A DNA stretch of 64,000 nt from a virus. Lineage: Duplodnaviria > Caudoviricetes. The stretch is from the IMG/VR virus record IMGVR_UViG_3300020420_000671; one strand, 5' to 3'. A program made the translations under genes and the position numbers. Below, one piece after another: positions 3,015 through 31,592 of this stretch. Position 1 is the stretch's first letter. Every line of letters starts with the position of its first letter. The notes below the pieces were generated by a model that made no database searches, had not been told where the DNA came from, and was given only the letters and a program-made list of their open reading frames with translations.

Positions 3015-5687
3015 ATGAGTTACGTAGACGCCTATTTTGACAGAGATTCTGACATCATCAGAGTAGTAGAACGAGTTGATGGTAAAAGAATTTTTCAAGA
3101 ACATCCTGTAAAATATACTTTTTATTATGACGACCCGAAAGGTAAGCACAGAAGCATCTATGGAGATCCAATCTCGCGTATTGTTTCAAGAAACACAAAA
3201 GACTTTCGCAAAGAACTAGCAATAAACAATAAAAGAAAACTTTTTGAAAGTGATATCAATCCTATATTCCAATGTTTGAGTGAAAACTATCTTAATCAAG
3301 ATGCTCCAAAACTTAATGTAGCATTTTTTGACATTGAAACAGATTTTGATCCTGAAAGAGGATTTGCTGACCCAAGCGATCCTTTTATGCCTATCACTGC
3401 TATTACGGTACATTTACAATGGCTTGATGCCTTGATAACTTTAGCAGTTCCGCCAAAGACTTTGACAATGGAGGAGGCAAAAGAACAGACTAAGGAATGG
3501 GGACAGGAATGTGTACTCTTTGAAAAAGAAGAAGATATGTTACAAGCATTCTTGGATCTGATTCAAGATAGTGATATACTAACAGGTTGGAACAGTGAAG
3601 GTTATGATATTCCTTATACTGTGAATAGAGTAAGCAGAGTCCTAAGCAAAGATGATACAAGACGTTTTTGTTTATGGAAACAACTTCCGAAAAAACGTGA
3701 ATACGAAAAATATGGTAAATCTGCTGAAACCTATGACCTAATAGGTAGAGTACATTTAGATAGTTTAGAATTATATCGTAAATATACATATGAAGAAAGA
3801 CATACTTACAGACTTGATGCCATTGGTGAACTTGAAGTTGGTGAAAAGAAAACTGTGTATGAAGGTACACTCGATCAACTTTATAACAATGACTTCAGAA
3901 CATTCATCGAATACAACAGACAAGACGTTGCACTACTGGACAAGCTGGACAAAAAACTAAGATTCATCGATCTTAGTAATGAATTGGCACATGCGAATAC
4001 TGTTTTGCTACAGACCACTATGGGTGCTGTCGCAGTTACAGAACAAGCTATTGTGAATGAAGCACACAGGCGTGGTATGCGAGTGCCTAATAGGCCGAAA
4101 CGTGATCCTGAGTCTTCGACAGCGGCTGGTGCCTATGTCGCTTTTCCTAAAAAAGGCTTACACAAATGGATAGGATCAATGGACTTGAATTCACTGTATC
4201 CATCTGTTATTAGAGCATTAAACATGGATCCAGCAACTATTGTTGGACAACTACGCCCAACACTTACTGATGAATATCTAAATGAAGCTATGAACTTACA
4301 AAAGAAATCCTTTGCTGGTGCTTGGGAAGGAAAGTTTGGCACATTAGAATATGAAGCAGTAATGGATCAGAAGAGAGATGTTGCTATTACTGTTGATTGG
4401 GAAAATGATAAAGAAGATGTTCTAAGTGGAGCAGAAATTTACAAAATAATTTTTGAAAGCAACAAACCTTGGATGCTTTCCTCAAACGGAACAATCTTTA
4501 CAACTGAACATGAGGGTGTAATTCCAGGATTGCTTAAACGTTGGTATCAAGAAAGAAAAGAATTACAAGGCCAACTTAAAAAGGCAAAAGATGCTGGTAA
4601 TTCTATTGAAATAGAATATTGGGATAAAAGACAGTTAGTAAAAAAGATTAACCTAAATAGTTTATACGGTGCTATTCTAAATCCTGGTTGTAGATTCTTT
4701 GATAAACGTATTGGTCAATCAACAACACTGAGTGGTAGAACTATTGTTAAACACATGTCAGCAGAAGTAAACAAAGTAATTACAGGTACATATGATCATG
4801 TAGGTGATGCGGTTATATATGGAGATACAGATTCTGTTTATTTCAGTGCTTTTCCTATACTTAAAAAAGATATTGATGCTGGTAAAATTCCTTGGAGCAA
4901 AGAAAACGTTATTACACTATATGATCAAGTAGCAGAGGCGGCAAACGCAACATTTGACAAGTTCATGGCTGAAGCTTTTCATTGCCCTAAAAGTCGAGCA
5001 GAGGTTATTGCGGCTGGTAGAGAAATCGTAGCAGAAAGTGGCTTATACATTACAAAGAAAAGATATGCGGCATTGGTTTATGACTTAGAAGGATTTAGAA
5101 CTGATACAGAAGGCAAGCCTGGTAAAGTAAAAGCAATGGGTTTAGACTTGCGTAGATCAGATACTCCGGTATTCATGCAAGAGTTTCTAAGTGAACTTCT
5201 ACTAATGGTATTAACTAATAAAACTGAAAAAGATGTACTAGACAGAATTACTGAATTTAGAACTGACTTTAAACAACGCCCAGGTTATGAAAAAGGTTCT
5301 CCAAAGAGAGCAAACAAGATAGGACACTATCAGAGACTTGAACAAAAGCAAGGAAAAGCTAACATGCCTGGACATGTAAGAGCAAGTATCAACTGGAATA
5401 CACTAAAACGTATGAATGGAGACAAGTATTCGCAGGAAATCGTAGATGGTATGAAAGTAATTGTTTGTAAACTAAAACAAAATCCATTAGGATATACCTC
5501 CGTTGCTTATCCAACAGATCAACTACGTATTCCAGATTGGTTTAAAGAACTTCCGTTTGATAATGATGCGATGGAGGAAACAATAATTGACAATAAACTA
5601 GGAAACTTAATAGGTGTGTTGAATTACGATTTAGAAAATACAAAACAAAACAACACTTTCAACAGCCTATTTGACTTTGGAGAGTAA
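3015..5687 (+). CDS. polB: Family B DNA polymerase with 3'-5' exonuclease domain
   Basis: Exo motifs FDIETD, GWNSEGYD, YNRQD; polymerase motifs DLNSLYPS, KKINLNSLYG, YGDTDS, KKRY; no intein. Confidence 0.97.
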   Translation: MSYVDAYFDRDSDIIRVVERVDGKRIFQEHPVKYTFYYDDPKGKHRSIYGDPISRIVSRNTKDFRKELAINNKRKLFESDINPIFQCLSENYLNQDAPKLNVAFFDIETDFDPERGFADPSDPFMPITAITVHLQWLDALITLAVPPKTLTMEEAKEQTKEWGQECVLFEKEEDMLQAFLDLIQDSDILTGWNSEGYDIPYTVNRVSRVLSKDDTRRFCLWKQLPKKREYEKYGKSAETYDLIGRVHLDSLELYRKYTYEERHTYRLDAIGELEVGEKKTVYEGTLDQLYNNDFRTFIEYNRQDVALLDKLDKKLRFIDLSNELAHANTVLLQTTMGAVAVTEQAIVNEAHRRGMRVPNRPKRDPESSTAAGAYVAFPKKGLHKWIGSMDLNSLYPSVIRALNMDPATIVGQLRPTLTDEYLNEAMNLQKKSFAGAWEGKFGTLEYEAVMDQKRDVAITVDWENDKEDVLSGAEIYKIIFESNKPWMLSSNGTIFTTEHEGVIPGLLKRWYQERKELQGQLKKAKDAGNSIEIEYWDKRQLVKKINLNSLYGAILNPGCRFFDKRIGQSTTLSGRTIVKHMSAEVNKVITGTYDHVGDAVIYGDTDSVYFSAFPILKKDIDAGKIPWSKENVITLYDQVAEAANATFDKFMAEAFHCPKSRAEVIAAGREIVAESGLYITKKRYAALVYDLEGFRTDTEGKPGKVKAMGLDLRRSDTPVFMQEFLSELLLMVLTNKTEKDVLDRITEFRTDFKQRPGYEKGSPKRANKIGHYQRLEQKQGKANMPGHVRASINWNTLKRMNGDKYSQEIVDGMKVIVCKLKQNPLGYTSVAYPTDQLRIPDWFKELPFDNDAMEETIIDNKLGNLIGVLNYDLENTKQNNTFNSLFDFGE

Positions 5688-6805: not shown

Positions 6806-6884
6806 TGATATCAGATACAGAAACAATGTTATTAACATTAGTACTAGGTGGACTATTTTATGCCTACCTATGCTGGAAAAATTT

Positions 6885-7655
6885 ATGAAACTTACACTAA
6901 TAGGATTTGGCTTCGTAGGCAAAGCAGTACATAACTTACTACAAGAACATTACGATGTAAAAGTAGTGGATCCTCAGTATAATAAAAATACAATTACGGA
7001 TGATTCAGATGGTTATATTGTTTGTGTTCCTACTCCAAGTTCACCTAACTTACATGCTTGTGATATGAGCATTGTTTGGGAGGTAGTGAAAGAGTGTCCT
7101 GACGATAAACCAATTTTAATTAAAAGCACAATTAGTTTAGAAGGTTATGAAGAAATCAAGAATTGGAACAAAAGAATTACTTTTAGTCCAGAATTTCTAA
7201 CAGCCGCAAATGCTAATGAAGATTTTAAAAATCAAAAAGATATGTTGTTCGGTGGATATGACACTGACTTTTGGTATGACATATTTATTTTAGTAAAAGG
7301 ATTCAAACCAACGTATGGTACAATAGAAGAACTTATTATGGCAAAGTATCTACGTAATAGTTTTTTAGCTACTAAGGTAGCCTTTTTCAATGAAGTATAT
7401 GATTTTTGTAAAGCAACAAATATTAGTTACGAAAGTGTTGCTGAACTAGTGGGAATGGACAATAGAATAACTAGAAATCACATGAAGGTTCCTGGTCCAG
7501 ATGGTAGTAGAGGATTTGGTGGTGCTTGTTTTCCTAAGGATACTAAAGCACTCTTACATACTTTTTCAACTTACAATAAACCGTTTACTATACTTAAAGA
7601 AGTAGTAGACTCAAACGAAAGGACAATTGATGAACATTCTGATAACAGGACATGA
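6885..7655 (+). CDS. ugd: UDP-glucose/GDP-mannose dehydrogenase family protein (short form)
   Basis: GFGFVG Rossmann motif, SPEFL, KYLRNSFLATKVAFFNE, GFGGACFPKD catalytic Cys motif. Confidence 0.88.
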   Translation: MKLTLIGFGFVGKAVHNLLQEHYDVKVVDPQYNKNTITDDSDGYIVCVPTPSSPNLHACDMSIVWEVVKECPDDKPILIKSTISLEGYEEIKNWNKRITFSPEFLTAANANEDFKNQKDMLFGGYDTDFWYDIFILVKGFKPTYGTIEELIMAKYLRNSFLATKVAFFNEVYDFCKATNISYESVAELVGMDNRITRNHMKVPGPDGSRGFGGACFPKDTKALLHTFSTYNKPFTILKEVVDSNERTIDEHSDNRT

Positions 7656-8346
7656 GGGATTCATAGGAACCGAGTTATGGAAAAAACTATCCACTAAACA
7701 TGATCTAATGGGATTAGATATAAAGAGTGGGGACGACATATTAACCTGCGATTTGCCTCACCCTAGTGTTGTAGAAGTGGTAATACATTTGGCAGGCATA
7801 GGAGGTGTGAGAGAAAGTCTAGCTGACCCACAAAAGTATTGGAATAACAATGTAGAAGGCACTAAAAGACTGCTCAATTACTATCCTAATGCTAGAATAT
7901 GTGTTGCTGGATCAAGTTCGCAATATGAACCACATCTAAATCCTTATGCGGCAAGTAAGAATGCTATAGAATATATTCCACATGATAATTGTTGTTTTAT
8001 GAGATTTCATACAGTATACGGTCCTGTACCAAGAGCAAACATGTTTTTTGATAAACTGCTTAACAACAAATTAGAATACGTAACACATCACAAAAGAGAC
8101 TTTATACATATTGAAGATTTATGTGATGCTATAGAAATTATAATGAACAGTAAAACTGTAGGATCATTAGATGTTGGAACCGGAGTATCTGTAAGTATCC
8201 AAGACATTAGGCCGGATCTACCTGTAAAACTAAATACTGTTGGTGAAAGAAAAATCACACAGGCAAATACAAAACAACTTCGAGATTTAGGTTTTAGATA
8301 TAAACACACAGTAGAAGGCTTTTTAAAAGAAAGAGGCATAAAATGA
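7630..8346 (+). CDS. NAD-dependent epimerase/dehydratase (extended SDR)
   Basis: ITGHEGFIG, HLAG, YAASK, RDFIHIED. Confidence 0.88.
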   Translation: MNILITGHEGFIGTELWKKLSTKHDLMGLDIKSGDDILTCDLPHPSVVEVVIHLAGIGGVRESLADPQKYWNNNVEGTKRLLNYYPNARICVAGSSSQYEPHLNPYAASKNAIEYIPHDNCCFMRFHTVYGPVPRANMFFDKLLNNKLEYVTHHKRDFIHIEDLCDAIEIIMNSKTVGSLDVGTGVSVSIQDIRPDLPVKLNTVGERKITQANTKQLRDLGFRYKHTVEGFLKERGIK

Positions 8347-8750
8347 AAATAGGCTTTACTTGTTCTACATTTGATTTACTACACGCAGGCCATGTTATAA
8401 TGTTGAGAGAGGCAAAACAACAATGCGACTTTTTAATTTGTGGTCTACAAGTTGATCCTAGTTTAGATAGAAAAGATAAAAATCCCCCCGTACAAACACT
8501 AGTAGAAAGATACAGTCAACTACATGCCTGTAAGTATGTAGATGAAATAATCCCTTATCAAACAGAAAAAGATTTAGAAGATATTTTGGAAATGTATGCC
8601 ATTGACGTAAGAATTTTGGGTGAAGAATACATAGAAAAAGAATTTACAGGTAAAGATATCTGTGAGAAAAGAGGTATACAACTATACTTCAATACAAGAG
8701 ATCACCGTTTTAGCAGTAGTGATCTAAGAAAAAGAGTAAAAAACTGTTGA
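8343..8750 (+). CDS. Cytidylyltransferase, TagD/RfaE-like
   Basis: FDLLHAGH (HxGH) and RFSSS motifs, 135 aa. Confidence 0.88.
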   Translation: MKIGFTCSTFDLLHAGHVIMLREAKQQCDFLICGLQVDPSLDRKDKNPPVQTLVERYSQLHACKYVDEIIPYQTEKDLEDILEMYAIDVRILGEEYIEKEFTGKDICEKRGIQLYFNTRDHRFSSSDLRKRVKNC

Positions 8751-9536: not shown

Positions 9537-9743
9537 ATGACCGAAACAGACGAAAACTTAAGATCAGAAGATACAAGTTATGAAAATGAACAAAGTATGG
9601 TAACAATACCCCTAAAAGAATATGACAAGTTGAAGGGAAGATCTAAATACATTACTGATAGAGATCTTATCAGTTGTATAGACAAGATAGAAGAACTTGT
9701 TAGAGCTTTAAGGAAACACATAGTAAGGACGGACTTAGATTGA
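9537..9743 (+). CDS. Hypothetical protein
   Basis: AGGAGG RBS then ATG at 9537. Confidence 0.65.
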   Translation: MTETDENLRSEDTSYENEQSMVTIPLKEYDKLKGRSKYITDRDLISCIDKIEELVRALRKHIVRTDLD

Positions 9744-11200
9744 ATACTAACCTAACCAACGAACAAAAGGACTACGCAATATTTTTGCCAGCATTGAGCG
9801 GCTTTTTTGCGACCTTTGTCGGAAAACAACGTAAGGAAGAATACGTAGAAAAAACACGTATTCCTAAATGCTTCCCCAATGAGGTTGAAAGTTTAAACTG
9901 GCTTAACCCTAGTAAGTCTATGTTCAATTATCATTGGAGTTTGTATTCAGCGGGTCATGCTGATCTTGACGTAAACAAAGATGCTCCCAAGGAAGATATG
10001 GTTAGAGATAGAGATCATAAGAACAGTTGGTTGTTAGGTGACTCGGGTGGTTTTCAAATTGGTAAAGGTGTATGGGAAGGTGACTGGAAAGATCCTAATT
10101 GTCCTAAGGCAAAGAAGAAACGTGAACAAGTGCTTACATGGATGGATGCCTATATGGATTATGGAATGATACTTGATATTCCAGCTTGGGTATCAAGATC
10201 AGAAGCAGGACAAAAAGCAACAGGAATAACAACTTATCAAGAAGCAGTCAATGCCACACGTATAAACAATGATTACTTTATGAAAAACCGTAATGGTAAC
10301 TGTAAGTTTTTAAATGTTTTACAAGGTGAAAATCATGCTGATGCTGAAGATTGGTATCAACAAATGAAAGACTATTGTGATCCTGTAAAATATCCTAACA
10401 CACATTTTAATGGTTGGTCCATGGGAGGACAAAACATGTGTGATATTCATCTAGTTTTGAAAAGATTGGTAGCACTACGTTTTGATGGTTTACTGGAAAA
10501 AGGTGTACATGACTTCATGCACTTCTTAGGCACATCTAAGTTAGAATGGGCTACCCTATTAACAGATATACAAAGAGCAGTTAGAAAATATCACAACGAA
10601 AACTTTACAATTACTTTTGATTGTGCTTCTCCATTTCTTGCTACTGCTAACGGACAGTTATACATACAAACAGAAACACAAGACAGAACAAAATGGGTCT
10701 ACAGAATGGTGCCTAGCATAGATGACAAGAAATATGCCAGTGACACAAGAATATTCAAGGATGCTGTTTTACAAGATGGTATATTTAAAAATTTTACAGA
10801 CAGTCCTGTGACTAAGGACTTGTTAGTAAAAGACGTTTGTATATATGCTCCAGGTGATTTGAATAAAATAGGCAAGGAAGGAAAGACTAGTTGGGATAGT
10901 TTTAGTTATGCTATACAAATGGCACACAACGTTTGGAGCCATATAAATGCGGTACAAGAAGCGAATAGACAATATGACTCAGGTATAACTCCAGCAATGC
11001 TTATAGATGAATCCTTTGATAGAATTTTATTTAGAGATGTTATTGAAGCAATTTTTGCTACATCTAATAGAGATGAAGCTGAAGCAGTAATAGAAGAATT
11101 CAGTAGATTCTGGATATCAATTATAGGTACACGAGGTGCCGTTGGTAAAAAGACAGTGAATGCTTCTACACAATTTGGAAACCTATTCGAGGAGGTATAA
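9740..11200 (+). CDS. tRNA-guanine transglycosylase-fold protein, probably a DNA deazaguanine transglycosylase (DpdA-like)
   Basis: LGDSGGFQ, MILDIP, NVLQG, MHFLG and FDCASP are TGT-like; TTG start; clustered with folE/queE. Confidence 0.75.
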   Translation: MNTNLTNEQKDYAIFLPALSGFFATFVGKQRKEEYVEKTRIPKCFPNEVESLNWLNPSKSMFNYHWSLYSAGHADLDVNKDAPKEDMVRDRDHKNSWLLGDSGGFQIGKGVWEGDWKDPNCPKAKKKREQVLTWMDAYMDYGMILDIPAWVSRSEAGQKATGITTYQEAVNATRINNDYFMKNRNGNCKFLNVLQGENHADAEDWYQQMKDYCDPVKYPNTHFNGWSMGGQNMCDIHLVLKRLVALRFDGLLEKGVHDFMHFLGTSKLEWATLLTDIQRAVRKYHNENFTITFDCASPFLATANGQLYIQTETQDRTKWVYRMVPSIDDKKYASDTRIFKDAVLQDGIFKNFTDSPVTKDLLVKDVCIYAPGDLNKIGKEGKTSWDSFSYAIQMAHNVWSHINAVQEANRQYDSGITPAMLIDESFDRILFRDVIEAIFATSNRDEAEAVIEEFSRFWISIIGTRGAVGKKTVNASTQFGNLFEEV

Positions 11201-11201
11201 T

Positions 11202-11384
11202 ATGGGGACTGGAAGAGCTAGTAAAAGAGCTAAGAAACTACAAAATCTACACAACTATTTCCACAATAAAGTAGAACAAGTAGAGATTGAAAGAAACGGC
11301 GATAGAACTTGGCAAACAAAGGAACATCTTATTAGATTAAAAAAACAAAAATTAGCAATCAAAGATAGGTTACAGAATGAATAG
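11202..11384 (+). CDS. Small coiled-coil protein (DUF465-like)
   Basis: GGAGG RBS; LKKQKLAIKDRL motif. Confidence 0.55.
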   Translation: MGTGRASKRAKKLQNLHNYFHNKVEQVEIERNGDRTWQTKEHLIRLKKQKLAIKDRLQNE

Positions 11385-11922
11385 AGATTACGAAAACGGA
11401 CAACAAAACGATATAGATTACTTTGTAGGAAGAGAAGTAGAAAAAACTCCAGCCTATGATAAGAATACTTTGTTTGTAGTAGGCATAAAACCTGTGAAAG
11501 ATGTGTTAAAATTAGCAACAAGAAATGATTGCGATCATGTTTATTTAGGAGCAAATCAAAGTTTTCATCTTACAGGAGAATCTGGTACAGAAGAAGAAAG
11601 CCAAGGTTGGGACAATTTGGTCACAGAACTACTTAAAGCAGGACTTTGGGTAACATTGGATTATGATGTAAGATATCATGATTATGTAATAGAAAGCGGA
11701 TACAACGAAAATGACAACTTTATAAGCATGATATCAGTAAAACTACCACACGTTAACCAATTGAACTATAACGCATGTATTAAGTTAGATGATGTTGATT
11801 TCAAAGCTACAAATCCAGGTGTTTGGGTATCATATGTACAAGAACATTTGGATAGAAAAAAATTTACAGATTGGGAAAAATATACCAAAGATCTGCCAAT
11901 TAAGGTTGACAGTGAGCATTAA
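11377..11922 (+). CDS. Hypothetical protein embedded in the deazaguanine cluster
   Basis: 181 aa, coupled between the TGT-like and T-fold genes. Confidence 0.7.
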   Translation: MNRDYENGQQNDIDYFVGREVEKTPAYDKNTLFVVGIKPVKDVLKLATRNDCDHVYLGANQSFHLTGESGTEEESQGWDNLVTELLKAGLWVTLDYDVRYHDYVIESGYNENDNFISMISVKLPHVNQLNYNACIKLDDVDFKATNPGVWVSYVQEHLDRKKFTDWEKYTKDLPIKVDSEH

Positions 11923-11934
11923 AGGTAGTATACT
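11906..11934 (+). promoter_or_regulatory. Sigma70-type promoter
   Basis: TTGACA-17 nt-TATACT. Confidence 0.7.
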
Positions 11935-12021
11935 ATGTTTGGAAATGTTGAATATTCAGAACCAGAGCGATATTATGATTGGATGCTTTGGAAAATGAGA
12001 CAAGAAAGAGAAGAGGCAAAT

Positions 12022-12408
12022 ATGAAAACAAAAGCAAAAAGAATGATTTGGGTAACTTTTAGAAAAGAAGGTATCCACAAATATCCGGCGGCATTAGATG
12101 ATCCTAAATTAGCTACAGGTGACGAGTATGATGTTTCATTTTTAGGATATCCACATAGACATATATTTCATTTTAAAGTAGGTATTACTGTAACACACAA
12201 CGATAGAGATATTGAGTTTATACAATTTAAAAGATGGATGGAGAAACTTTACGCAGAAAAAACACTAGAACTAGATTATAAGTCATGTGAAATGATGGCT
12301 GATGATTTGTACGATAAGGTTACAGAAAAGTATCCTAACAGAGAAGTACATATTGATATTTCAGAGGACGGTGAGAACGGTGCTCACATTGAATACCCTA
12401 GCTACTAG
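12022..12408 (+). CDS. QueD-paralogue T-fold protein (DpdL-like)
   Basis: LGYPHRHIF, SCEMMA and EDGENGA; lacks the canonical QueD Cys..HGH. Start 12022 chosen because the ATG at 11935 abuts the -10 box. Confidence 0.7.
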   Translation: MKTKAKRMIWVTFRKEGIHKYPAALDDPKLATGDEYDVSFLGYPHRHIFHFKVGITVTHNDRDIEFIQFKRWMEKLYAEKTLELDYKSCEMMADDLYDKVTEKYPNREVHIDISEDGENGAHIEYPSY

Positions 12409-12421: not shown

Positions 12422-12679
12422 GTGAAACAGGGTGACTACTTCGTTAAGAATCCAGAGATTGTAAAAATCTTTGACGATTTAGAACAATACAAAAAGTTTT
12501 GCCAAATTGCTTTTGGCTATGGCCATGACGGCTATGTTTTTAATGAGAAAGACCTTTACAATGACAAAAGTCGTGCCTGGCGTGCCTTTTGTAATTTTAG
12601 AAAAGGCAAAAAACGTCCTTACTTTAAAAAGTTTGATAAAAAATTTCAAGGACGTTATTATAGTAAAAGGAGACACTAG
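12422..12679 (+). CDS. Basic hypothetical protein
   Basis: AAGGAG RBS, GTG start, coupled to the GT gene. Confidence 0.55.
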   Translation: MKQGDYFVKNPEIVKIFDDLEQYKKFCQIAFGYGHDGYVFNEKDLYNDKSRAWRAFCNFRKGKKRPYFKKFDKKFQGRYYSKRRH

Positions 12680-13746
12680 TGACGATTTATATAGTAGATA
12701 TTGAAGCAGTTGATACACGTTATACAAAACAATGGAAAGAGCATCTTCCCTCTCAACTAAGACAATCTACTAACCATAAAGTTGTTACTATAAGTGGCGG
12801 AGATACTCCCCAGGCAACAACACCTGGGGCGTTTCTTAACTTTGGTGGTACTAACGTATACAAAAGTAAACAGTTAGAACAGATAGGAGAAATGTTTTGT
12901 AAAGGTGAAGTTAAAAAAGGTGATTACTTTCTTTATACTGATGCTTGGAATCCTACTGTTATACAATTACGTTACATGTCAGAACTATTAGGAGTTCCAA
13001 TTAGAATTGGAGGACTATGGCATGCCGGTTCATATGATCCACAAGACTTTTTAGGTAGATTGATAGGTGATAAACCTTGGGTAAGACATGCTGAAAGAAG
13101 TATGTATGCTTGTTTTGATGATAACTTTTTTGCCACACAGTTTCATATTGATATGTTTCTTGATACGTTTAAACATAAAGGAAGTGACCTCCAATGGATA
13201 CAAGTAGATGAATCTAAAGTAAAGAAAGTTGGCTGGCCAATGGAGTATCTAAAAGATAGTTTAACTTCTTATAGAAAGATGGACAAAATAAATTCTATAG
13301 TATTTCCACATAGACTTGCTCCAGAAAAACAAATTGACATTTTTAAAGATCTAAGAGAAAGTATGCCAGAATATGAGTTTGTAATATGTCAAGAAAGACA
13401 ACTGACAAAGAATGAATATCATAACATACTAGGCGAAGCTAAAATTGTTTTTAGTGCTAACTTACAAGAAACTTTGGGAATAAGTTGGTATGAAGGAGTA
13501 ATAGTAGGTGCCCTTCCACTAGTTCCTGATAGATTAAGTTATAGTGAAATGGCTACACAAGATTTTAAATATCCTAGCATTTGGACTAAGAACTTTGAAC
13601 AGTATCAAAGATACAAACCGCAGTTGATAGCAAAAATAAAAGACCTAATGGAATACTATGATGAATATTTAGGGCCATTAGAAAAACAACGTTTACAACT
13701 TAAAAAGTTTTTTGATGGTGAAAAGTTATACGGGAGTATAAAGTAA
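12679..13746 (+). CDS. GT-B fold glycosyltransferase (GT4-like)
   Basis: FPHRLAPEKQ and QETLGISWYEG (E-x7-E) donor-binding motifs. Confidence 0.75.
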   Translation: MTIYIVDIEAVDTRYTKQWKEHLPSQLRQSTNHKVVTISGGDTPQATTPGAFLNFGGTNVYKSKQLEQIGEMFCKGEVKKGDYFLYTDAWNPTVIQLRYMSELLGVPIRIGGLWHAGSYDPQDFLGRLIGDKPWVRHAERSMYACFDDNFFATQFHIDMFLDTFKHKGSDLQWIQVDESKVKKVGWPMEYLKDSLTSYRKMDKINSIVFPHRLAPEKQIDIFKDLRESMPEYEFVICQERQLTKNEYHNILGEAKIVFSANLQETLGISWYEGVIVGALPLVPDRLSYSEMATQDFKYPSIWTKNFEQYQRYKPQLIAKIKDLMEYYDEYLGPLEKQRLQLKKFFDGEKLYGSIK

Positions 13747-14093
13747 TGGGCGACGATCATAAAATTACAATTAATATTAGCAATCCGGAGGACAACTATT
13801 CTACTTATATTACTAGTGGAACCTCAACGATCGCTCCTAGTTTTAACATAGATGATTTAAATGATACTGGCTCAGAATATGCTATAAACACAGATTACAC
13901 TTATACTACAGACGGTTTTGATATTAGTATGCCTGGTATAGACAATAGCCCAGACACTTGGCCTGCTGAGTATAGAGTAAAGGAAATGATTGAAAAGTAT
14001 CCAGCTTTGAAAATACAATATGAAAAATTTTTAGAGATTTATAATTTAATTAAAGATGACCATAAGGACAATTTGGATGACATTCTTAAGTAA
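13746..14093 (+). CDS. Hypothetical acidic protein
   Basis: 115 aa ORF with TAATG coupling. Confidence 0.6.
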   Translation: MGDDHKITINISNPEDNYSTYITSGTSTIAPSFNIDDLNDTGSEYAINTDYTYTTDGFDISMPGIDNSPDTWPAEYRVKEMIEKYPALKIQYEKFLEIYNLIKDDHKDNLDDILK

Positions 14094-14586
14094 GTTTATG
14101 GATAAAATAGGAAGACGCAGAGTAATTACAGATAGGACTGGGAAGATTCCTTATCTTATAAGATACTATGTGTTTCTAAAAGATAGAAAACATTTTCCGT
14201 TCAACATAACCTTACATAAGGTTTTAGTAAGTGATGAACCTAAACTACATGACCATCCTTGGAACTGGGGAGCAGTAATATTGAAAGGTGGTTATTGGGA
14301 ACACATTCCTATTAGATCAATGGAAGGAGCAGTAGTTGGTAGCACAAGAGAATGGAGAGGTCCTGGGCACATTAGATTTAGAAAAGCAGAAGACTTACAT
14401 TGGTTAGAATTAGAAAAGGATAAGGACGGTAATGAAATACCTTGTGTCAGTTTATTCTTGATGGGTAAGAAACGTAAAGAATGGGGATTTGTAGACTGGT
14501 TTCCAGCAACAGAGAAAAACTGGAGAAACGCAGGTTATAGATGGGTACATAATGAAACATACTTAAAGGAAAGGCAGAATGGTTAA
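14077..14586 (+). CDS. Cupin-superfamily protein
   Basis: LHKV..SD..LHDHPW..ILKGGYWE and LHWLEL cupin metal motifs. Confidence 0.6.
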   Translation: MTFLSKFMDKIGRRRVITDRTGKIPYLIRYYVFLKDRKHFPFNITLHKVLVSDEPKLHDHPWNWGAVILKGGYWEHIPIRSMEGAVVGSTREWRGPGHIRFRKAEDLHWLELEKDKDGNEIPCVSLFLMGKKRKEWGFVDWFPATEKNWRNAGYRWVHNETYLKERQNG

Positions 14587-15112
14587 AAAGCATTACTACA
14601 CTTGGAAAGATGTAGAAAGAAGTTGTATTAGCATCGTTAATCAAATGTATACTGACCAGTGGCGACCAGATTACATTGTTGGTATTACAAGAGGTGGTAA
14701 TATTCCTGCTACGATAATTTCAAACATGACAGGAATACCATGTGAAGCAATTAAAGTAAGTCTTAGAGATGACAGCAAATTAGAAAGCAATACTAGAATG
14801 GCAATGGATGCCTATGGCAAATTTCAACAAGGACAAAACAAAAACGAAGGAAAAAACATTTTAATTGTTGATGATATAAATGACACAGGAGCAACGTTCA
14901 ATTGGATAGTAGATGATTGGGAAAGAAGTTGTAATCCTGGTGATACAGAATGGAGAAACGTTTGGTGTGAAAATGTACGTTTCGCAGTAATAACAGATAA
15001 CTCAGCAAGTGATTTTAAATTTATGGTAAATTATTCAACACATGAAGTGAATAAAAAAGAAGAAGACATTTGGTTAGTTTACCCTTGGGAAAGGGTAGGC
15101 ACATATGATTGA
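14579..15112 (+). CDS. Type I phosphoribosyltransferase (xanthine/guanine PRT-like)
   Basis: GITRGG, ILIVDDINDTGAT PRPP-binding loop, VYPWE. Confidence 0.88.
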   Translation: MVKKHYYTWKDVERSCISIVNQMYTDQWRPDYIVGITRGGNIPATIISNMTGIPCEAIKVSLRDDSKLESNTRMAMDAYGKFQQGQNKNEGKNILIVDDINDTGATFNWIVDDWERSCNPGDTEWRNVWCENVRFAVITDNSASDFKFMVNYSTHEVNKKEEDIWLVYPWERVGTYD

Positions 15113-15689
15113 ACATCAATTAATTTTTCCTACACAGGTATTTAGAGCCCAGTATCAACCTGCTAATGAATTACAAAGGACTGTGGTACCAATATTATTA
15201 GAACAAGAGAAAAATGATCAAAAACCTTTAAAGTATACTGCTAACGGATATACTGACTATGGTAGAGAAAACTTATTAGAAAGACCCGTGTTTAAAGACT
15301 TGAAAGAGTTCATTGATGATGTAGTGGTGCGTTGTCATAAACAGACAGGCTTACAAAACACACCGTCACTTAAAAGCAGTTGGTTTAGTATTAACCGTAA
15401 ATACACATATCACGAAGAGCATAATCATCTTCCAGACACATGGAGCGGAGTATATTATATACAAGCAGATAGAGATCATCCAGGGCTTACTTTGGTTAAT
15501 CCTAACATGAAATCAAACTGGCCTGGTACATATGGTAGAGCAGAATTGAACGATGTTAATTCATCAAGTGTTACTTGTGCGGCATTTACAGGAAGCCTAA
15601 TAGTATTTCCAAGCCATTTACATCACAAAGTAGAACAACAAACAGTAGATAAAGAACGTATAATGGTGGCATTTAATTATGGATTCTAA
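15105..15689 (+). CDS. Putative 2OG-Fe(II) oxygenase
   Basis: HNH..WSGVYYI, IVFPSHLHHKV, RIMVAFN. Confidence 0.8.
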   Translation: MIEHQLIFPTQVFRAQYQPANELQRTVVPILLEQEKNDQKPLKYTANGYTDYGRENLLERPVFKDLKEFIDDVVVRCHKQTGLQNTPSLKSSWFSINRKYTYHEEHNHLPDTWSGVYYIQADRDHPGLTLVNPNMKSNWPGTYGRAELNDVNSSSVTCAAFTGSLIVFPSHLHHKVEQQTVDKERIMVAFNYGF

Positions 15690-16014
15690 ACCTTGGACAG
15701 ATATTTTGATTGATACGAGAGATTATACAGTTTATAGAGACAAGTATCCAGTAACAGAAGGACACATACTTTTTGTACCCAAAGAACAAACCTTTGAAGC
15801 AATACAAAAATGCTATAAAGCCGCATACGGCTGGGGTTATGAATGGGTAGAAAAAGGTTACTGTGATGCTTATAATGTTGGACAAAATGTAGGCAAGGAA
15901 GCAGGTCAAACTGTTCCTTATCCACATATCCATCTCATCCCACGTCGCAAGGGTGATATGGAAGATCCAAGAGGAGGAGTGCGACACGTGATCCCTGAAA
16001 AGGGAAGATATTAG
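15679..16014 (+). CDS. HIT-family nucleotide hydrolase
   Basis: GHILFVPK, GQTVPYPHIHLIPR histidine triad. Confidence 0.9.
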   Translation: MDSKPWTDILIDTRDYTVYRDKYPVTEGHILFVPKEQTFEAIQKCYKAAYGWGYEWVEKGYCDAYNVGQNVGKEAGQTVPYPHIHLIPRRKGDMEDPRGGVRHVIPEKGRY

Positions 16015-17127: not shown

Positions 17128-17817
17128 TTGGATAAAAGTGAAGAAATTATTAAAAGACTGCGTGATGCCAACATTAGGTATTGGGCAGGTGATAATATTA
17201 GTGAAGTACTAAAACAAGGTGACAAGGAAGCCTTAATTGAAGAACTTACTCCAAAGTTTGAAACAGTACTAGACAGTTTAATTATTGATCGTTATAATGA
17301 TCCTAACAGTAAAGACACTGGTAGACGATTAGCAAAAATGTATATCAATGAAATAATGAGTGGTAGGTATGAGCCTATGCCAAACGCAACTGCTTTTCCT
17401 AACCACGTAGATGATGGTTACAAAGGAATGTTGGTTGTGCGAAGCGAAATAAAAAGTATGTGTTCGCATCATCATCAACCTGTAAATGGTGTGGCATACA
17501 TAGGTATCATTGCCGCAGAAACACTAATAGGACTTTCTAAGTATACACGTATAGCTCAATGGTGTGCTAGAAGAGGAACATTACAAGAAGAACTAAACAA
17601 TGTAATTGCTAACGAAATACAAAAAGCAACAGGTAGTTCAAACATAGGTGTCTATTTACAAGCAACACATGGTTGTTGTGAAAATAGAGGTATAGGTGCT
17701 CATAGTAGTTTAACACAGACTACTGTACTACGTGGAGCATTTAATGAGGATCCAGGAACTAAAAAGGAGTTTATGGACAATATTAAACTACAACAAGAAT
17801 TTGCTTGTGGAAAATAG
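17128..17817 (+). CDS. folE: GTP cyclohydrolase I
   Basis: SMCSHHHQP, GLSKYTR, LQE, HGCCENRG; TTG start after GGAG. Confidence 0.95.
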   Translation: MDKSEEIIKRLRDANIRYWAGDNISEVLKQGDKEALIEELTPKFETVLDSLIIDRYNDPNSKDTGRRLAKMYINEIMSGRYEPMPNATAFPNHVDDGYKGMLVVRSEIKSMCSHHHQPVNGVAYIGIIAAETLIGLSKYTRIAQWCARRGTLQEELNNVIANEIQKATGSSNIGVYLQATHGCCENRGIGAHSSLTQTTVLRGAFNEDPGTKKEFMDNIKLQQEFACGK

Positions 17818-18144: not shown

Positions 18145-19047
18145 ATGGACAAGGCAGAAAAGAAAGTATATTACAGTGAAATATTCCACTCTATTCAGGG
18201 AGAAGGACACTATACAGGTGTGCCTACTGCTTGGATACGTTTCTTTCTGTGTAACCTACAATGTAGTGGCTTTGGACAGATAGATCCTACAAATCCAGAA
18301 ACATATGATCTTCCGTTTTTAGATTATGATGTAAGTCAAGTAGAAAGAGTAGAAGACTTGCCTGTGTGGGAAAAAGGTTGTGATAGTTCTTACACTTGGG
18401 CAAAAAAATACAAACATCTTATGGGACATGAAGTTCCTAGTGTATTGGCAAACAAGATTGTAGATATACTAAGAACAGATTCGAATCCAGAAGGTTTGTT
18501 TTTACATCCTGTGAGTAAACAAAGACAACACTTATGTTTTACAGGCGGCGAACCCTTAATGATTACTGGACAGACAGCAAGTGTTGGCATTTATGAGGAA
18601 CTTGAAAAATTAGGTAACTTGCCTAGTTCAATGACTTTTGAAACTAACGGTACACAAAAGTTGAGAGATCCTTTTAAAGAATGGGTGAAAAGAATAGATG
18701 AAGAAGTATTCTTTAGTTGTAGTCCTAAACTGTTTACTGTGAGTGGAGAAGAAGCTAAAAAAGCAATTATACCAGAAGTAGTAGGTGAGTATGCTGATCT
18801 TTCTAATAAAGGACAATTAAAATTTGTTGTAGGTTCTGAACAACGACAATGGGATGAAATGGAATCTGTTGTAGAAAAATTTAAAGCACAAGGTGTTGAT
18901 TGGCCAATATGGGTTATGCCTGTAGGAGCCAGAGAAGAAGAACAGAGTGCGACAGCAGGTGATGTAGCAAAAATGGCTTTCCAAAGAGGATATAATGTAG
19001 CGGCAAGAGTACATGTATACTTGTTTGGAAACGCAATTGGAACGTAA
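18145..19047 (+). CDS. queE: 7-carboxy-7-deazaguanine synthase (radical SAM)
   Basis: YSEIFHSIQGEG, WIRF..CNLQC..GCDS, FTGGEPL, FETNGT, SPKL, RVHVYL. Confidence 0.9.
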   Translation: MDKAEKKVYYSEIFHSIQGEGHYTGVPTAWIRFFLCNLQCSGFGQIDPTNPETYDLPFLDYDVSQVERVEDLPVWEKGCDSSYTWAKKYKHLMGHEVPSVLANKIVDILRTDSNPEGLFLHPVSKQRQHLCFTGGEPLMITGQTASVGIYEELEKLGNLPSSMTFETNGTQKLRDPFKEWVKRIDEEVFFSCSPKLFTVSGEEAKKAIIPEVVGEYADLSNKGQLKFVVGSEQRQWDEMESVVEKFKAQGVDWPIWVMPVGAREEEQSATAGDVAKMAFQRGYNVAARVHVYLFGNAIGT

Positions 19048-19057: not shown

Positions 19058-19447
19058 ATGAAAGATATCATTAATAAGATAAAAGGTCTTGGCAAAAAGA
19101 AAAAAGAAGTAAAGAAACCTCTTAGTGCTGAAGAAGAAAGAAGAGCAGTATTAGCCAAAGAAAAGGAAGAAGCATCTAAGAAAGGTGAACCTTGGGTTGG
19201 TGTATTAGATACAAAAGTAAATCCAGATAACATCAAAAATGGTTTTTTCGAGCTTGATTGGAATAATGAATTTATTGAACAATTACTCGATGCTGGCTAT
19301 ACTGGCGAATCAAATGAGCAAATTGTTGATGCTTGGTTCAAAACTATTGCTAGGCAAGTGCTTGAAGATGGTGGAGAAGACCCAGATAGAAATGCTGGTT
19401 TTATAGACACTACTAAAATTGATGAAAAGAAAACAAAAGTTTCTTGA
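19058..19447 (+). CDS. Conserved phage hypothetical protein
   Basis: AGGAGG RBS; EPWVGV..GFFELDWN. Confidence 0.7.
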   Translation: MKDIINKIKGLGKKKKEVKKPLSAEEERRAVLAKEKEEASKKGEPWVGVLDTKVNPDNIKNGFFELDWNNEFIEQLLDAGYTGESNEQIVDAWFKTIARQVLEDGGEDPDRNAGFIDTTKIDEKKTKVS

Positions 19448-19472
19448 CAAATTACACAATAGAAAGTATAGT
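19444..19472 (+). promoter_or_regulatory. Sigma70-type promoter producing a probable leaderless mRNA
   Basis: TTGACA-17 nt-TATAGT with ATG 6 nt after the -10 box. Confidence 0.75.
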
Positions 19473-19478
19473 AATACT

Positions 19479-20465
19479 ATGACTTACATATTAGTAGATA
19501 CAGCAAATACATTTTTTCGAGCTAGACACGTAATACGTGGAGATTTAGAAACTAAAATTGGTATGGCATTACATATCACGTTAGGTGGTATACGTAAAGC
19601 ATATCAGGACTTTGAAGGTGCTCATGTTGTATTCTGCTTAGAAGGTCGTAGTTGGCGTAAGGATTATTATGAGCCTTACAAAAGAAATAGAAGTGATGCT
19701 CGTGCGGCACAGACAGAAAGAGAACAAGAAGAAGATAAAGTGTTCTGGGAAATATTTGATGAGTTTAATAAGTTTGTAAGTAACAAAACAAATTGTTCTG
19801 TATTACATCACCCTACTTTAGAAGCAGATGATTTGATCGCAGGTTGGATACAAGCACACCCTAATGATAATCATGTTATTATATCAACCGATGGTGACTT
19901 CGGACAACTTATTGCTCCTAATGTAAGTCAATACAATGGCGTACAAAATACTATTATTACACACGAAGGATACTTTGATGATAAGAAAAGATTGCCTGTG
20001 ATAGATAAAAAGACAGGCAAAGAAAAGCCTGCTCCAGATCCTGAATGGTTATTGTTTGAAAAGTGTATGAGAGGTGACACAAGTGATAATGTGTTTAGTG
20101 CTTATCCTGGTGTAAGAACAAAAGGCACAAAAAATAAAGTAGGCTTGTTAGAAGCATACGCAGATAGAAAAAGTAAAGGATTTAATTGGAATAATCTAAT
20201 GTTACAACGTTGGATGGATCACAAAGGAGAAGAACATAGAGTTCTTGACGATTACAATAGAAATGTTGTTCTGTGTGATTTATCAGCACAGCCTGGTAAC
20301 GTTAGGTCAATTATAAATGACGTAGTAGAAGATGCTATGGAACAACCGAAAAGCATATCACAAGTTGGATTACATCTTATGAAGTTCTGTGCTAAACATG
20401 ACCTACAAAAGATAGCAGATAATGTTCAACAATATGCTGAACCACTACAGGCAAAATACTCATAG
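19479..20465 (+). CDS. rnh: 5'-3' exonuclease / T4 RNase H-like (PIN fold)
   Basis: ILVD, YKRNR, EADDLIA, STDGDFGQL, GDTSDNV. Confidence 0.9.
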   Translation: MTYILVDTANTFFRARHVIRGDLETKIGMALHITLGGIRKAYQDFEGAHVVFCLEGRSWRKDYYEPYKRNRSDARAAQTEREQEEDKVFWEIFDEFNKFVSNKTNCSVLHHPTLEADDLIAGWIQAHPNDNHVIISTDGDFGQLIAPNVSQYNGVQNTIITHEGYFDDKKRLPVIDKKTGKEKPAPDPEWLLFEKCMRGDTSDNVFSAYPGVRTKGTKNKVGLLEAYADRKSKGFNWNNLMLQRWMDHKGEEHRVLDDYNRNVVLCDLSAQPGNVRSIINDVVEDAMEQPKSISQVGLHLMKFCAKHDLQKIADNVQQYAEPLQAKYS

Positions 20466-21998: not shown

Positions 21999-23087
21999 AT
22001 GGAAAATATCGCACTAAGAACAGTTAGTCCGAACGGAGCCAAAAGAAGCATCCGTAGGGCATTCAAGAAGAAAAGACCAATTTTTATTTGGGGACCTCCA
22101 GGCATTGGTAAGTCTGAAGTAGTTCACCAGATTGGTGATGAATACAAGAAAGCTCTTGTAATAGACATTAGACTTTCATTATGGGAACCTACAGACATTA
22201 AAGGTATTCCATATTTTGATAGCAATGCTGGTACAATGGTTTGGGCACCACCATCAGAGCTTCCAGACGAAGCAACTGCTAAAAAATATGAAGTAGTTAT
22301 TTTGTTTATGGACGAAATGAATTCTGCTCCGCCGGCAGTACAAGCGGCGGCTTATCAGCTTATATTAAACAGACGTGTTGGCACATATCATTTGCCAGAT
22401 AACGTTGTTATTGTTGCGGCTGGTAACAGAGATGCTGACAAAGGTGTTACTTATAGAATGCCTGCTCCGTTGGCAAACAGATTTGTACACCTAGAAATGA
22501 AAGTTGATTTTGAGGATTGGTTACAATGGGCCGCCGAACATCAATTACATTCAGACGTTGTAGGTTATTTGACTTTCGCAAAGAAAGACTTGTATGACTT
22601 TGATCCTAAAAGTCCAAGTCGTTCCTTTGCTACACCGCGTTCTTGGTCATTTGTTTCCGAATTACTGGAAGACGATGATGACGAGAATACCACTACCGAT
22701 TTGGTAAGTGGTGCCGTAGGAGAAGGACTTGCCGTTAAGTTTATGGCGCATCGTAAGGTTGCTTCGAAACTCCCTCAACCAATTGACATCTTAGATGGCA
22801 AGGTAAAGGAGTTAGAGACTAAAGAAATCAGTGCCATGTATTCCTTAACAGTCTCTTTATGCTATGAACTGAAAGAAGCCTGTGATAAAAAGGATAAAAA
22901 GTTTGATACGAAAGTTAATAACTTCCTTAGATTCGCAATGGATAATTTTGATACAGAATTGGTTGTAATGGGTATTAAGTTAGCCCTCACACAATACTCA
23001 CTACCAATTGACCCAGATGAGGTTGACTGTTTCGATGAGTTCCATAACAGGTTTGGTAAGTACGTAACTGCGGCTCAAAGTGCATAA
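21999..23087 (+). CDS. MoxR-type AAA+ ATPase
   Basis: Walker A GPPGIGKS, Walker B ILFMDE, AAGNR, LANRF, TPRSW. Confidence 0.9.
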   Translation: MENIALRTVSPNGAKRSIRRAFKKKRPIFIWGPPGIGKSEVVHQIGDEYKKALVIDIRLSLWEPTDIKGIPYFDSNAGTMVWAPPSELPDEATAKKYEVVILFMDEMNSAPPAVQAAAYQLILNRRVGTYHLPDNVVIVAAGNRDADKGVTYRMPAPLANRFVHLEMKVDFEDWLQWAAEHQLHSDVVGYLTFAKKDLYDFDPKSPSRSFATPRSWSFVSELLEDDDDENTTTDLVSGAVGEGLAVKFMAHRKVASKLPQPIDILDGKVKELETKEISAMYSLTVSLCYELKEACDKKDKKFDTKVNNFLRFAMDNFDTELVVMGIKLALTQYSLPIDPDEVDCFDEFHNRFGKYVTAAQSA

Positions 23088-23196: not shown

Positions 23197-24465
23197 ATGA
23201 CAATAGATACTAAAGGATTTGAACCAAAAAAGCTCACAAAAGAAGAGCTAGAGGTAATGAGAGCAGACGTTGCTGATAGAATTATCGTAGCAAGAGTTGG
23301 TTTATTACTACGACATCCGTTCTTTGGTAACATGGCAACTAGACTTAAAGTTGAAAACTGTGATGCTTGGTGCCCTACTGCCGCTACAGACGGTAAGCAT
23401 TTATTTTACAATACACAATTTTTTAATGCTCTTTCTAACAAGGAAATAGAGTTTGTTATAGCACATGAAATACTTCATTGTGTTTTTGATCACATTATAA
23501 GAAGAGAAGATAGAGATCCAGAAATATACAATATTGCTTGTGACTATATTGTAAACAATACACTGGTCCGTGATAAAATAGGTGATCCTGTAAAAATGAT
23601 TCCAATATATCAAGACTGGAAATATGATAACTGGCAATCAGAAGCAGTATACGATGATATTTACGAAAAGGCAAAAGAGAACGGTAAAAAGTTCTTAGAA
23701 CAAATGGGTCAGTTACTTGATGAACATATTGATTGGGAAAAGAAGCCTGGACAAAGTAAAAAAGGTAAAGGTGGAAAAGGGCAACAACGTCCATATTACA
23801 CAAAAGATGAAATGAAAAAGATTAGAGATCAGGTTAAAGAAAACATGATTTCTGCGGCACAATCCGCTGGTGCTGGTAATGTTCCTGCTGAAATAGAAAG
23901 AATGATAAAGGAACTAACAGAACCAAAAATGAATTGGAGAGAAATACTAAGACAGCAAATACAGGCAACTATAAGAAACGATTATACTTTTAGTCGACCT
24001 AGTAGAAAAGGTTGGCATACTGGTGTTGTATTGCCAGGTATGAATTTTGATCAACAAATAGATTGTGCTATTGCTTTTGACATGTCAGGTTCTATTGGAG
24101 ATGATCAAGCAAAAGACTTCCTATCAGAAGTAAAGGGCATAATGGATGAATTCAAAGAATACAATGTTAAGTTGTGGTGTTTTGATACAGCCGTGTATAA
24201 TGAACAGGATTTTTCCAGCACAGACGGGGAAGACTTTTCAAACTATCAACCCATTGGTGGCGGCGGTACAGAGTTTATGTGTAATTGGGAATACATGAAA
24301 GAACATGATATACAACCTAAAAAGTTGATTATGTTTACAGATGGTTATCCTTTTGGTAGTTGGGGTGAAGATGATTACTGTGATACAGTCTTTGTAATTC
24401 ATGGACATCATGATAAAAACTTTACTGCTCCTTTTGGAATAACTGCCCATTATGAGGATGCCTAA
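23197..24465 (+). CDS. Metallopeptidase-like plus VWA domain protein (DUF2201-like), MoxR partner
   Basis: AHEILH zincin motif; MIDAS DMSGS, GGGT, FTDG. Confidence 0.85.
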   Translation: MTIDTKGFEPKKLTKEELEVMRADVADRIIVARVGLLLRHPFFGNMATRLKVENCDAWCPTAATDGKHLFYNTQFFNALSNKEIEFVIAHEILHCVFDHIIRREDRDPEIYNIACDYIVNNTLVRDKIGDPVKMIPIYQDWKYDNWQSEAVYDDIYEKAKENGKKFLEQMGQLLDEHIDWEKKPGQSKKGKGGKGQQRPYYTKDEMKKIRDQVKENMISAAQSAGAGNVPAEIERMIKELTEPKMNWREILRQQIQATIRNDYTFSRPSRKGWHTGVVLPGMNFDQQIDCAIAFDMSGSIGDDQAKDFLSEVKGIMDEFKEYNVKLWCFDTAVYNEQDFSSTDGEDFSNYQPIGGGGTEFMCNWEYMKEHDIQPKKLIMFTDGYPFGSWGEDDYCDTVFVIHGHHDKNFTAPFGITAHYEDA

Positions 24466-28312: not shown

Positions 28313-28315
28313 TTA

Positions 28316-31548: not shown

Positions 31549-31568
31549 ATAGGTGCTCTTTTACAAAG

Positions 31569-31587: not shown

Positions 31588-31592
31588 TACGT

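Follow-up and report, generated by a model that had tools for sequence, protein, structure and literature searches.

A GT4-like glycosyltransferase gene paired with dpdL in phage 7-deazaguanine clusters, a candidate for glycosylation of a modified purine

What would a glycosyltransferase do among phage genes for the exchange of guanine in DNA for 7-deazaguanine? The question is raised by a 64,000-nucleotide stretch of IMG/VR virus record IMGVR_UViG_3300020420_000671 (Duplodnaviria; Caudoviricetes), referred to here as the window. The open reading frame (ORF) at positions 12679 to 13746 had been predicted from the sequence to encode a GT-B glycosyltransferase, co-transcribed with a T-fold gene of a deazaguanine operon and acting on a modified purine in DNA rather than on 5-hydroxymethylcytosine (hmC). 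The main new result of the analysis described here is that the gene for this enzyme forms a pair with that T-fold gene, dpdL, across divergent phages. As part of the best explanation, the enzyme is proposed to be a dedicated accessory enzyme of the DpdA/DpdL-type 7-deazaguanine DNA-modification pathway, and we give somewhat better than an even chance to its glycosylating a base derived from 7-deazaguanine, either within phage DNA or on the way into it.

A scan with the single glycosyltransferase protein gave only close marine relatives, at 69–90% identity, and the comparison of closer relatives covered 82 related loci. Searching with tblastn matched 22 deposited phage records at 25–50% identity, namely the PA5oct group, Phosso, ACP17 and jumbo phages of Xanthomonas, Burkholderia and Erwinia. 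Annotated phage regions and the contigs of seven distant metagenomic representatives (29–38% identical) were scanned with hidden Markov models (HMMs) for the glycosyltransferase, DpdL and DpdA, and ten further contexts were compared. The gene orders, in which GT stands for the glycosyltransferase and x for another gene, were DpdA-GT-DpdL in PA5oct, DpdA-GT-DpdL-QueE in ACP17, FolE ... GT-DpdA-DpdL-QueE in Xanthomonas phage X1 and DpdL-GT-x-FolE in Phosso; DpdL-GT, DpdL-x-x-GT-DpdA, GT-DpdL, FolE-DpdL-GT-x-QueE and QueD-FolE-DpdA-DpdL-GT in the metagenomic contexts L085/86, L087, L090/91, L092-94 and L095, respectively; and PolB ... DpdA-u181-DpdL-GT ... FolE-QueE in 80 closer marine IMG/VR loci. 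DpdL thus directly adjoins the glycosyltransferase in eight of the ten, the exceptions being X1, where DpdA lies between them, and L087, where two small genes do. The glycosyltransferase was never seen apart from DpdL wherever the flank sufficed for the check (the contigs of L088 and L089 were too short to be informative), and phage records bearing the one gene and those bearing the other agree by host genus where both were detected. Because the genes change places from lineage to lineage and identity is as low as 25–30%, the pairing appears to be functional and not merely inherited. The co-occurrence with DpdA-like genes on which the original prediction depended was also found, with DpdA within one or two genes of the glycosyltransferase in seven lineages, and the linkage to DpdL is tighter still.

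DpdL also occurs without the glycosyltransferase, in phage phiST and in phages of Vibrio, Aeromonas, Rhizobium, Synechococcus and Chryseobacterium. The DNA of phiST contains 100% deoxy-7-deazaguanine (dDG) in place of the normal nucleoside (PMC10516641). Since DpdL is found on its own in this way, as in phiST with its plain dDG, the glycosyltransferase is best seen as an add-on downstream of the DpdL/dDG route. No literature linking a glycosyltransferase to DpdL or DpdA in phages, or describing glycosylated deazaguanine in DNA, was found in a search that left most subscription journals outside its reach, and "glycosyl" has no occurrence in the searched text of PMC10516641.

The reading frame itself has the features of a genuine gene, in agreement with the original prediction. 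The AAAGGAGA ribosome-binding site lies 6 nt upstream of its GTG start, which shares bases with the stop codon of a small ORF in front of it (TAGTG); at the other end, its own stop codon overlaps the ATG of the next ORF (TAATG). As a single sequence the protein had zero matches in Pfam (threshold E<0.01), PHROGs, NCBIfam or, by phmmer, the PDB. An alignment of 60 diverse relatives, A1, was used as the basis of an AlphaFold2 model and of the conservation analysis. The model reached a predicted local distance difference test score (pLDDT) of 95.1 and a predicted template-modelling score (pTM) of 0.92, and folds into the two Rossmann domains of a GT-B enzyme with alternating beta and alpha elements. 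Structure comparison with the PDB by Foldseek and VIA-align returned sucrose-phosphate synthase at Z 25.5, BshA and MshA at about 24.5, and PglA and glycogen synthase at about 22, with an alignment spanning residues 1–355 and many GT4 structures at Z 22–25. The likeness to BshA, MshA and sucrose-phosphate synthase (Z 24–25, about 300–315 residues aligned at a root mean square deviation of about 3 Å, with the same EX7E and R/K motifs) comes with only 9–13% sequence identity, and, in contrast to theirs, the family of the phage enzyme is virus-only. At the profile level, 35 of the 60 relatives matched PF00534 (Glycos_transf_1) and 2 of the 60 PF13439, and the family profile matched the PDB glycosyltransferase 8xsg at 3.6e-5. 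The ORF at 12679–13746 is therefore assigned, on the strength of the model and these matches, as a predicted GT-B, GT4-like glycosyltransferase, which upholds the fold named originally.

In the EX7E motif, E264 is conserved in more than 90% of the 60 relatives and E272 is invariant, and R212 and K217, a basic pair in the C-terminal donor-binding domain, are nearly invariant. The N-terminal (acceptor) domain has an invariant set of its own, consisting of Q65, D88, W90, H115, D120, D123 and E139. With EX7E intact and R212 and K217 nearly invariant, the enzyme looks catalytically competent as judged from its sequence. Neither of the T4 alpha- and beta-glucosyltransferases (AGT and BGT), to which it had been likened, was among the best 50 in the Foldseek PDB, VIA-align and BFVD lists; that kinship is not supported, and the protein groups with GT4-like enzymes. 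The best viral structure match, from BFVD, was the ACP17 homologue. The family is acidic (median isoelectric point (pI) 5.7; N-terminal domain 5.6) and is virus-specific, the nearest ESM Atlas clusters consisting to 95–100% of viruses. It comprises at least 8000 clusters at 90% identity, with many records from Tara Oceans; an exhaustive HMMER scan gave 1206 clusters at 50% identity, of which 252 had E-values below 1e-30, and contigs carrying the family reach up to 330 kb. No longer, fused forms (623–2000 aa) and no DpdL or DpdA domain inside a family member were found. A complex prediction of the glycosyltransferase with DpdL scored 0.00 and speaks neither for nor against binding.

The partner gene of the pair was identified by its motif. 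DpdL is defined by LxxxHRHxF, and this QueD paralogue has been proposed to decarboxylate 7-carboxy-7-deazaguanine (CDG) to 7-deazaguanine (Cui et al. 2023, PMC10516641). The motif of the window protein fits this published signature, which stands in place of CxxxHGH, and its L41, H45, H47 and F49 do not vary among 11 divergent homologues, even at 30% identity. By tblastn the window protein matched phiST gp040 and ACP17 ASD50405, the DpdL proteins of phages studied in PMC10516641. The protein encoded at 9740–11200 is a DpdA-like enzyme as far as modelling can tell: although its AlphaFold2 model is less certain (pLDDT 67, pTM 0.76), the best 50 Foldseek PDB matches are all tRNA-guanine transglycosylases (TGTs), its ESM Atlas features point to TGT clusters, and the motifs DSGGFQ, HxLG and FD are invariant with the DpdA proteins of ACP17 and X1. 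The X1 protein is annotated as a queuine tRNA-ribosyltransferase, and that of ACP17 lies upstream of the ACP17 glycosyltransferase. BLASTP of the 486-aa window protein against these two was insignificant except for a shared DSGG(F/L)Q motif, the Pfam TGT HMM matched neither the window protein nor five phage records, even where "queuine tRNA-ribosyltransferase" was annotated, and a PDB search with profiles built for DpdL and for the DpdA-like protein gave no match.

The remaining steps are represented by FolE and by a QueE-like radical SAM enzyme, whose tblastn matches are phage genes annotated QueE. Canonical QueD is not in the window and was found elsewhere in the genomes of two of five partial relatives; QueC gave nothing above cut-off, and QueF, QueA and QueG were not seen among the window ORFs scanned. 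Given the DpdA-like protein, DpdL, FolE and QueE, with QueD in relatives and no QueC, the cluster is of the DpdA/DpdL (dDG) type. These four genes and the glycosyltransferase gene all lie on the plus strand and are tightly packed, and the placement of the enzyme inside a deazaguanine operon is thereby confirmed. The promoter at 11906 from which it was thought to be co-transcribed fared less well: the sigma70-like motif exists, but promoter-like matches in the region (56) do not exceed those in shuffled sequence (45 ± 7), and the last base of the -10 hexamer immediately precedes the ATG at 11935 with which the long DpdL frame opens. Co-transcription with DpdL from this putative promoter is plausible. 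The N-terminal extension of DpdL from ATG 11935 is conserved in marine relatives despite abutting the -10 hexamer, and a second possible start lies at 12022, with a GAGG site upstream. The features of the locus are collected in Table 1.

Table 1 Features of the glycosyltransferase locus, with the evidence for each (counts refer to the related loci)
Feature	Position	Strand	Length	Evidence or remarks
NDP-sugar dehydrogenase-like protein (NDP, nucleoside diphosphate)	6870..7655	+	261 aa	
Short-chain dehydrogenase/reductase (SDR) epimerase/dehydratase	7627..8346	+	239 aa	
Cytidylyl/adenylyl-transferase, RfaE-II/TagD-like nucleotidyltransferase	8343..8750	+		
Predicted DpdA-like DNA (guanine) transglycosylase, TGT fold	9740..11200	+	486 aa	Fold matches and motifs
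Conserved protein without family assignment	11377..11922	+	181 aa	Homologous to ACP17 ASD50402
Putative sigma70-like promoter motif	11906..11934	+		TTGACA, 17 nt, TATACT; 11/12 matches
DpdL, QueD-paralogue T-fold protein, predicted CDG decarboxylase	11935..12408	+	157 aa	LGYPHRHIF
Small ORF between DpdL and glycosyltransferase	12422..12679	+	85 aa	GTG start, AAGGAG ribosome-binding site; homologues in 63/82
Predicted GT4-like GT-B glycosyltransferase	12679..13746	+	355 aa	GTG start; fold model, structure matches, motifs
Fast-evolving small ORF, translationally coupled to glycosyltransferase stop	13746..14093	+	115 aa	
Cupin-like protein	14056..14586	+		phrog_4786 1e-27; in 69/82
Purine-type phosphoribosyltransferase (PRTase), best match xanthine/guanine PRTase	14579..15112	+		PF00156 9e-14
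2-Oxoglutarate-Fe(II) oxygenase	15105..15689	+		PF13759; in only 27/82
HIT-family nucleotide hydrolase/transferase	15679..16014	+		PF01230 4e-11; in 62/82
FolE, GTP cyclohydrolase I	17128..17817	+		PF01227 1e-37; NCBIfam FolE 8e-40, below curated cut-off
QueE-like radical SAM enzyme (7-carboxy-7-deazaguanine synthase)	18145..19047	+		phrog_2076 4e-53

Other conserved genes accompany these. The PRTase, which matches the NCBIfam xanthine PRTase at 3e-12 (below cut-off), is present in 75 of the 82 related loci and has a weak homologue in the PA5oct cluster; it could recycle the guanine released by DpdA or, by analogy with TubE in tubercidin synthesis, ribosylate CDG or deazaguanine. The 181-aa protein had no family or PDB match. 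Its homologue ASD50402 is encoded just upstream of ACP17 DpdA, so that the module has in it one more conserved member, as yet without a name.

Given these parts, a pathway can be proposed. FolE and QueE, together with a QueD from another part of the genome, would convert GTP to CDG, DpdL would convert CDG to 7-deazaguanine, probably by decarboxylation, and the TGT-fold DpdA would swap 7-deazaguanine for guanine in phage DNA. The glycosyltransferase would then transfer a sugar from an NDP-sugar to the deazaguanine-derived base, either on DNA after insertion, in the manner of the T4 glucosyltransferases, or beforehand, with the free base or the nucleotide as acceptor. Virion DNA would then contain a glycosylated deazapurine, which could act as a shield against restriction enzymes and host 7-deazaguanine-specific glycosylases. 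In keeping with such a role, PA5oct DNA resists restriction enzymes with G-containing sites and is recognized by nucleases directed at hypermodified DNA (PMC12191111). Many 7-deazaguanine-specific DNA glycosylases are encoded by hosts (bioRxiv 10.1101/2025.10.29.685425), which would provide a selective reason to cap the base.

The closest published system is the DpdA3/DpdL pathway of phiST (PMC10516641), which shares with the window FolE, QueE, a DpdL with LxxxHRHxF, a divergent TGT-fold DpdA, the lack of QueC and a cluster beside replication genes, with QueD present in relatives. It differs in producing plain dDG without a glycosyltransferase, whereas the window, PA5oct, ACP17, Phosso, X1 and many marine phages carry the enzyme near DpdL, often together with sugar genes. 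A precedent for the chemistry is provided by HuiG, a GT4-type enzyme (PF13439) of the huimycin cluster of Kutzneria albida, which adds N-acetylglucosamine to N2 of a 7-deazapurine (PMC7439116; bioRxiv 10.64898/2026.04.15.718813); the dapiramicin pathway is considered alongside it. Since HuiG glycosylates this exocyclic nitrogen of a 7-deazaguanine-derived base, a deazaguanine acceptor is chemically precedented. The two enzymes are likened by function and context, HuiG too being encoded beside FolE/QueD/QueE-type genes, and not by sequence; the actinomycete secondary-metabolite cluster that encodes HuiG includes QueC and lacks DpdA, and the acceptor of HuiG is free O6-methyl-preQ0 base, not DNA.

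Several observations weigh against a sugar on deazaguanine in DNA. The 7-deazaguanine base has no hydroxyl, so that the candidate attachment sites are N2 (as in huimycin), C7/C8 or a substituent added by another enzyme, and an oxygenase is absent from the minimal ACP17 cluster. The acidic character of the family and the mostly small, soluble acceptors of its closest structures favor a precursor over duplex DNA, the pI disfavoring duplex DNA only weakly; glycosylation of the free base or nucleotide before insertion by DpdA is as plausible as action on DNA. Decarboxylation by DpdL is itself a proposal, and heterologous DpdL and DpdA of ACP17 and phiST yielded no dDG (PMC10516641). Finally, much of the linkage comes from phages with related replication modules, although ancestry alone sits poorly with the changes in gene order and the low identity.

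The alternative that survives best is that the enzyme belongs to the deazaguanine pathway and acts only on a soluble intermediate or side product, such as a FolE/QueD-type pterin, CDG, or 7-deazaguanine or its nucleotide; the product would be the glycoside of a pterin or deazapurine, or else a carrier that is glycosylated transiently, and DNA would bear no sugar. We consider this unlikely. It would agree with the acidic pI and with the nearest structures, which are small-molecule GT4 enzymes (BshA, MshA, sucrose-phosphate synthase, LmbT and GlgM), and DpdL is one of the T-fold proteins, whose ligands are pterins or purines. The co-located purine PRTase and HIT protein, joined in one lineage by NUDIX and ATP-grasp proteins, resemble nucleotide-level deazapurine routes such as that to tubercidin. 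A tetrahydrobiopterin glucosyltransferase (9v0l) stands at rank 48 of the Foldseek matches, but the match is no better than those to dozens of other GT4 enzymes. A pterin glycoside, an idea prompted by FolE and a PTPS-like protein beside the glycosyltransferase, was ranked low, as QueE and DpdA accompany the enzyme. Soluble products in general fit poorly with the constant company of DpdL, the closeness of DpdA in seven lineages and the position of the cluster in the replication module, and a free glycoside is of no obvious use to a phage.

Less probable again is an acceptor outside nucleic acid, such as a glycan or lipid of the host envelope or a protein of either phage or host, with the position in the cluster reflecting only co-expression with early genes. 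Most GT4 enzymes do act on glycans, lipids or proteins, and PglA, PimA, TarM and GtfA are among the structure matches. The automatic annotation of relatives by JGI reads "glycosyltransferase involved in cell wall biosynthesis", and the window holds other sugar-modifying islands, with a DegT aminotransferase and a carbamoyltransferase. This reading leaves the adjacency to DpdL unaccounted for, which is kept down to 25–30% identity, in variable order, in proteobacterial phages and in marine metagenomic phage contigs. The model shows no signal peptide or membrane-anchor feature, and the confinement of the family to viruses argues in the same direction.

The T4 AGT and BGT are GT-B enzymes encoded among early genes; by attaching a sugar to a DNA base that already bears a modification, they defeat host nucleases. 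The enzyme described here is likewise a phage GT-B enzyme whose gene lies with replication genes, which raises the alternative of a T4-like glucosyltransferase acting on hmC or 5-hydroxymethyluracil, unrelated to the purine pathway. We see very little chance of this. A thymidylate-synthase-family gene does occur in the relatives' genomes, but at 352 bits against a ThyA equivalog cut-off of 327 it is ThyA and not a hydroxymethylase, and the window ORFs scanned included neither a dCMP or dUMP hydroxymethylase nor a TET/JBP-like gene, consistent with what had been noted at the outset for dCMP hydroxymethylase. In addition, the T4 enzymes use the hydroxyl of hmC, whereas a deazapurine is proposed here and the protein has the GT4 EX7E motif, and a pyrimidine acceptor would leave the pairing with DpdL unexplained.

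It is just as improbable that the TGT-like enzyme and the glycosyltransferase act on tRNA to form a glycosylated queuosine-like base, as QTMAN and QTGAL do in vertebrates, for although TGT-fold enzymes are classically tRNA enzymes and glycosylated 7-deazaguanine derivatives in nucleic acid are known only from tRNA (manQ, galQ), the complete substitution in phiST DNA goes together with a DpdA3-type enzyme and DpdL, PA5oct DNA resists restriction at G-containing sites, the window has no tRNA genes and, with QueC below cut-off, no queuosine side-chain genes were seen among the window ORFs scanned. QTMAN and QTGAL, likened here by description, do add mannose or galactose to a 7-deazaguanine derivative installed in nucleic acid by a TGT enzyme; their sugar goes onto the cyclopentenediol hydroxyls of queuosine, a side chain beyond the capability of the window cluster.

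If the enzyme glycosylates a deazaguanine-derived base, a sugar donor has to be supplied. Three sugar-nucleotide genes (6870–8750) lie between PolB and a clamp-like gene and are candidates for donor supply, and in the window lineage the donor would come in part from them. A scan of roughly 60 window ORFs revealed no second glycosyltransferase. The dehydrogenase-like protein spans only positions 75–299 of a 413-position model and is present in only 18 of the 82 related loci, and the SDR epimerase is likewise short at 239 aa; both enzymes (6870–8346) may be trimmed or degenerate. The sugar-nucleotide or sugar-tailoring genes near the pair differ by lineage. In L087 (11017–14475), a polysaccharide deacetylase, a methyltransferase (beside DpdA) and QueD flank the GT-DpdA core, in L092 (6316–8026) a dTDP-sugar isomerase and a UDP-GlcNAc 2-epimerase flank the core, and in the contig P0208 a second GT4 lies beside it. 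This variety suggests that different lineages use different sugars, possibly including a deacetylated hexosamine.

The glycosyltransferase gene itself also appears to have been exchanged. Nucleotide identity to a near-identical metagenomic relative, L006, is 96–99% in both flanks and 72–80% across 12900–14100, a segment comprising most of the glycosyltransferase gene and the following 115-aa ORF, which is replaced jointly with it in close relatives. The drop points to a putative recombination or allele-replacement hot spot at 12900–14100. Allele replacement at the glycosyltransferase fits a determinant of an arms race. With just under an even chance, in our estimation, these phages make a glycosylated 7-deazaguanine and the GT-DpdL pair is the core of a widespread, marine-abundant module in which the sugar (hexosamine, uronic acid or deoxy-sugar) is varied by swapping glycosyltransferase alleles and sugar-nucleotide genes.

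The window, from a marine phage, has a GC content of 34%, and megablast of the region against deposited phage genomes gave no near-identical match. A protein identical to one encoded in the window sits on metagenomic contigs of up to 332,763 bp, and the window is therefore attributed to a jumbo phage. Every gene from PolB (3015–5687) through a 5'-3' exonuclease (19419–20465) lies on the plus strand, and it is in this replication module that the deazaguanine cluster is located. Downstream of the replication block, a DUF2201 metallopeptidase/VWA-like protein (23197–24465) adjoins an AAA (MoxR-like) ATPase (21999–23087). An auxiliary metabolic island on the minus strand (27171–37736) carries genes for an AMP-binding enzyme fragment, a GMP reductase-like protein, two radical SAM enzymes, a SAM methyltransferase, a class IV aminotransferase and an Asp/Arg beta-hydroxylase-like protein. 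The GMP reductase-like protein scores 302 bits, short of the equivalog cut-off, and one of the two radical SAM enzymes has a B12-binding domain. A second island, for sugar or small-molecule tailoring (37787–47316), carries a DegT/DnrJ sugar aminotransferase, a GDSL hydrolase, radical SAM enzymes, a NodU/CmcH-type carbamoyltransferase and a spermine-synthase-like methyltransferase, and none of its genes was recognized as a glycosyltransferase.

To our knowledge, DNA glycosylation has so far been described only on hydroxymethyl-pyrimidines (T-even phages, base J and SP-15-type bases), and 7-deazaguanine modifications only with small C7 substituents. If the proposed reaction takes place, its product would be the first sugar-bearing purine in DNA and would represent a purine counterpart of the arms race around hmC glucosylation in T-even phages, aimed at deazaguanine-specific host DNA glycosylases. 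From the tight linkage of a glycosyltransferase to DpdL and DpdA one would predict that the modified guanine receives an additional chemical layer, and a requirement for this enzyme may explain why DpdL and DpdA of ACP17 alone gave no product in E. coli. The family is also present in cultured, tractable phages, namely Pseudomonas phage PA5oct and its relatives, Acidovorax phage ACP17, Sinorhizobium phage Phosso and the Xanthomonas jumbo phages. The finding accordingly bears on phage therapy candidates of the PA5oct group, on defence based on restriction or glycosylases, and on new DNA-labelling enzymes.

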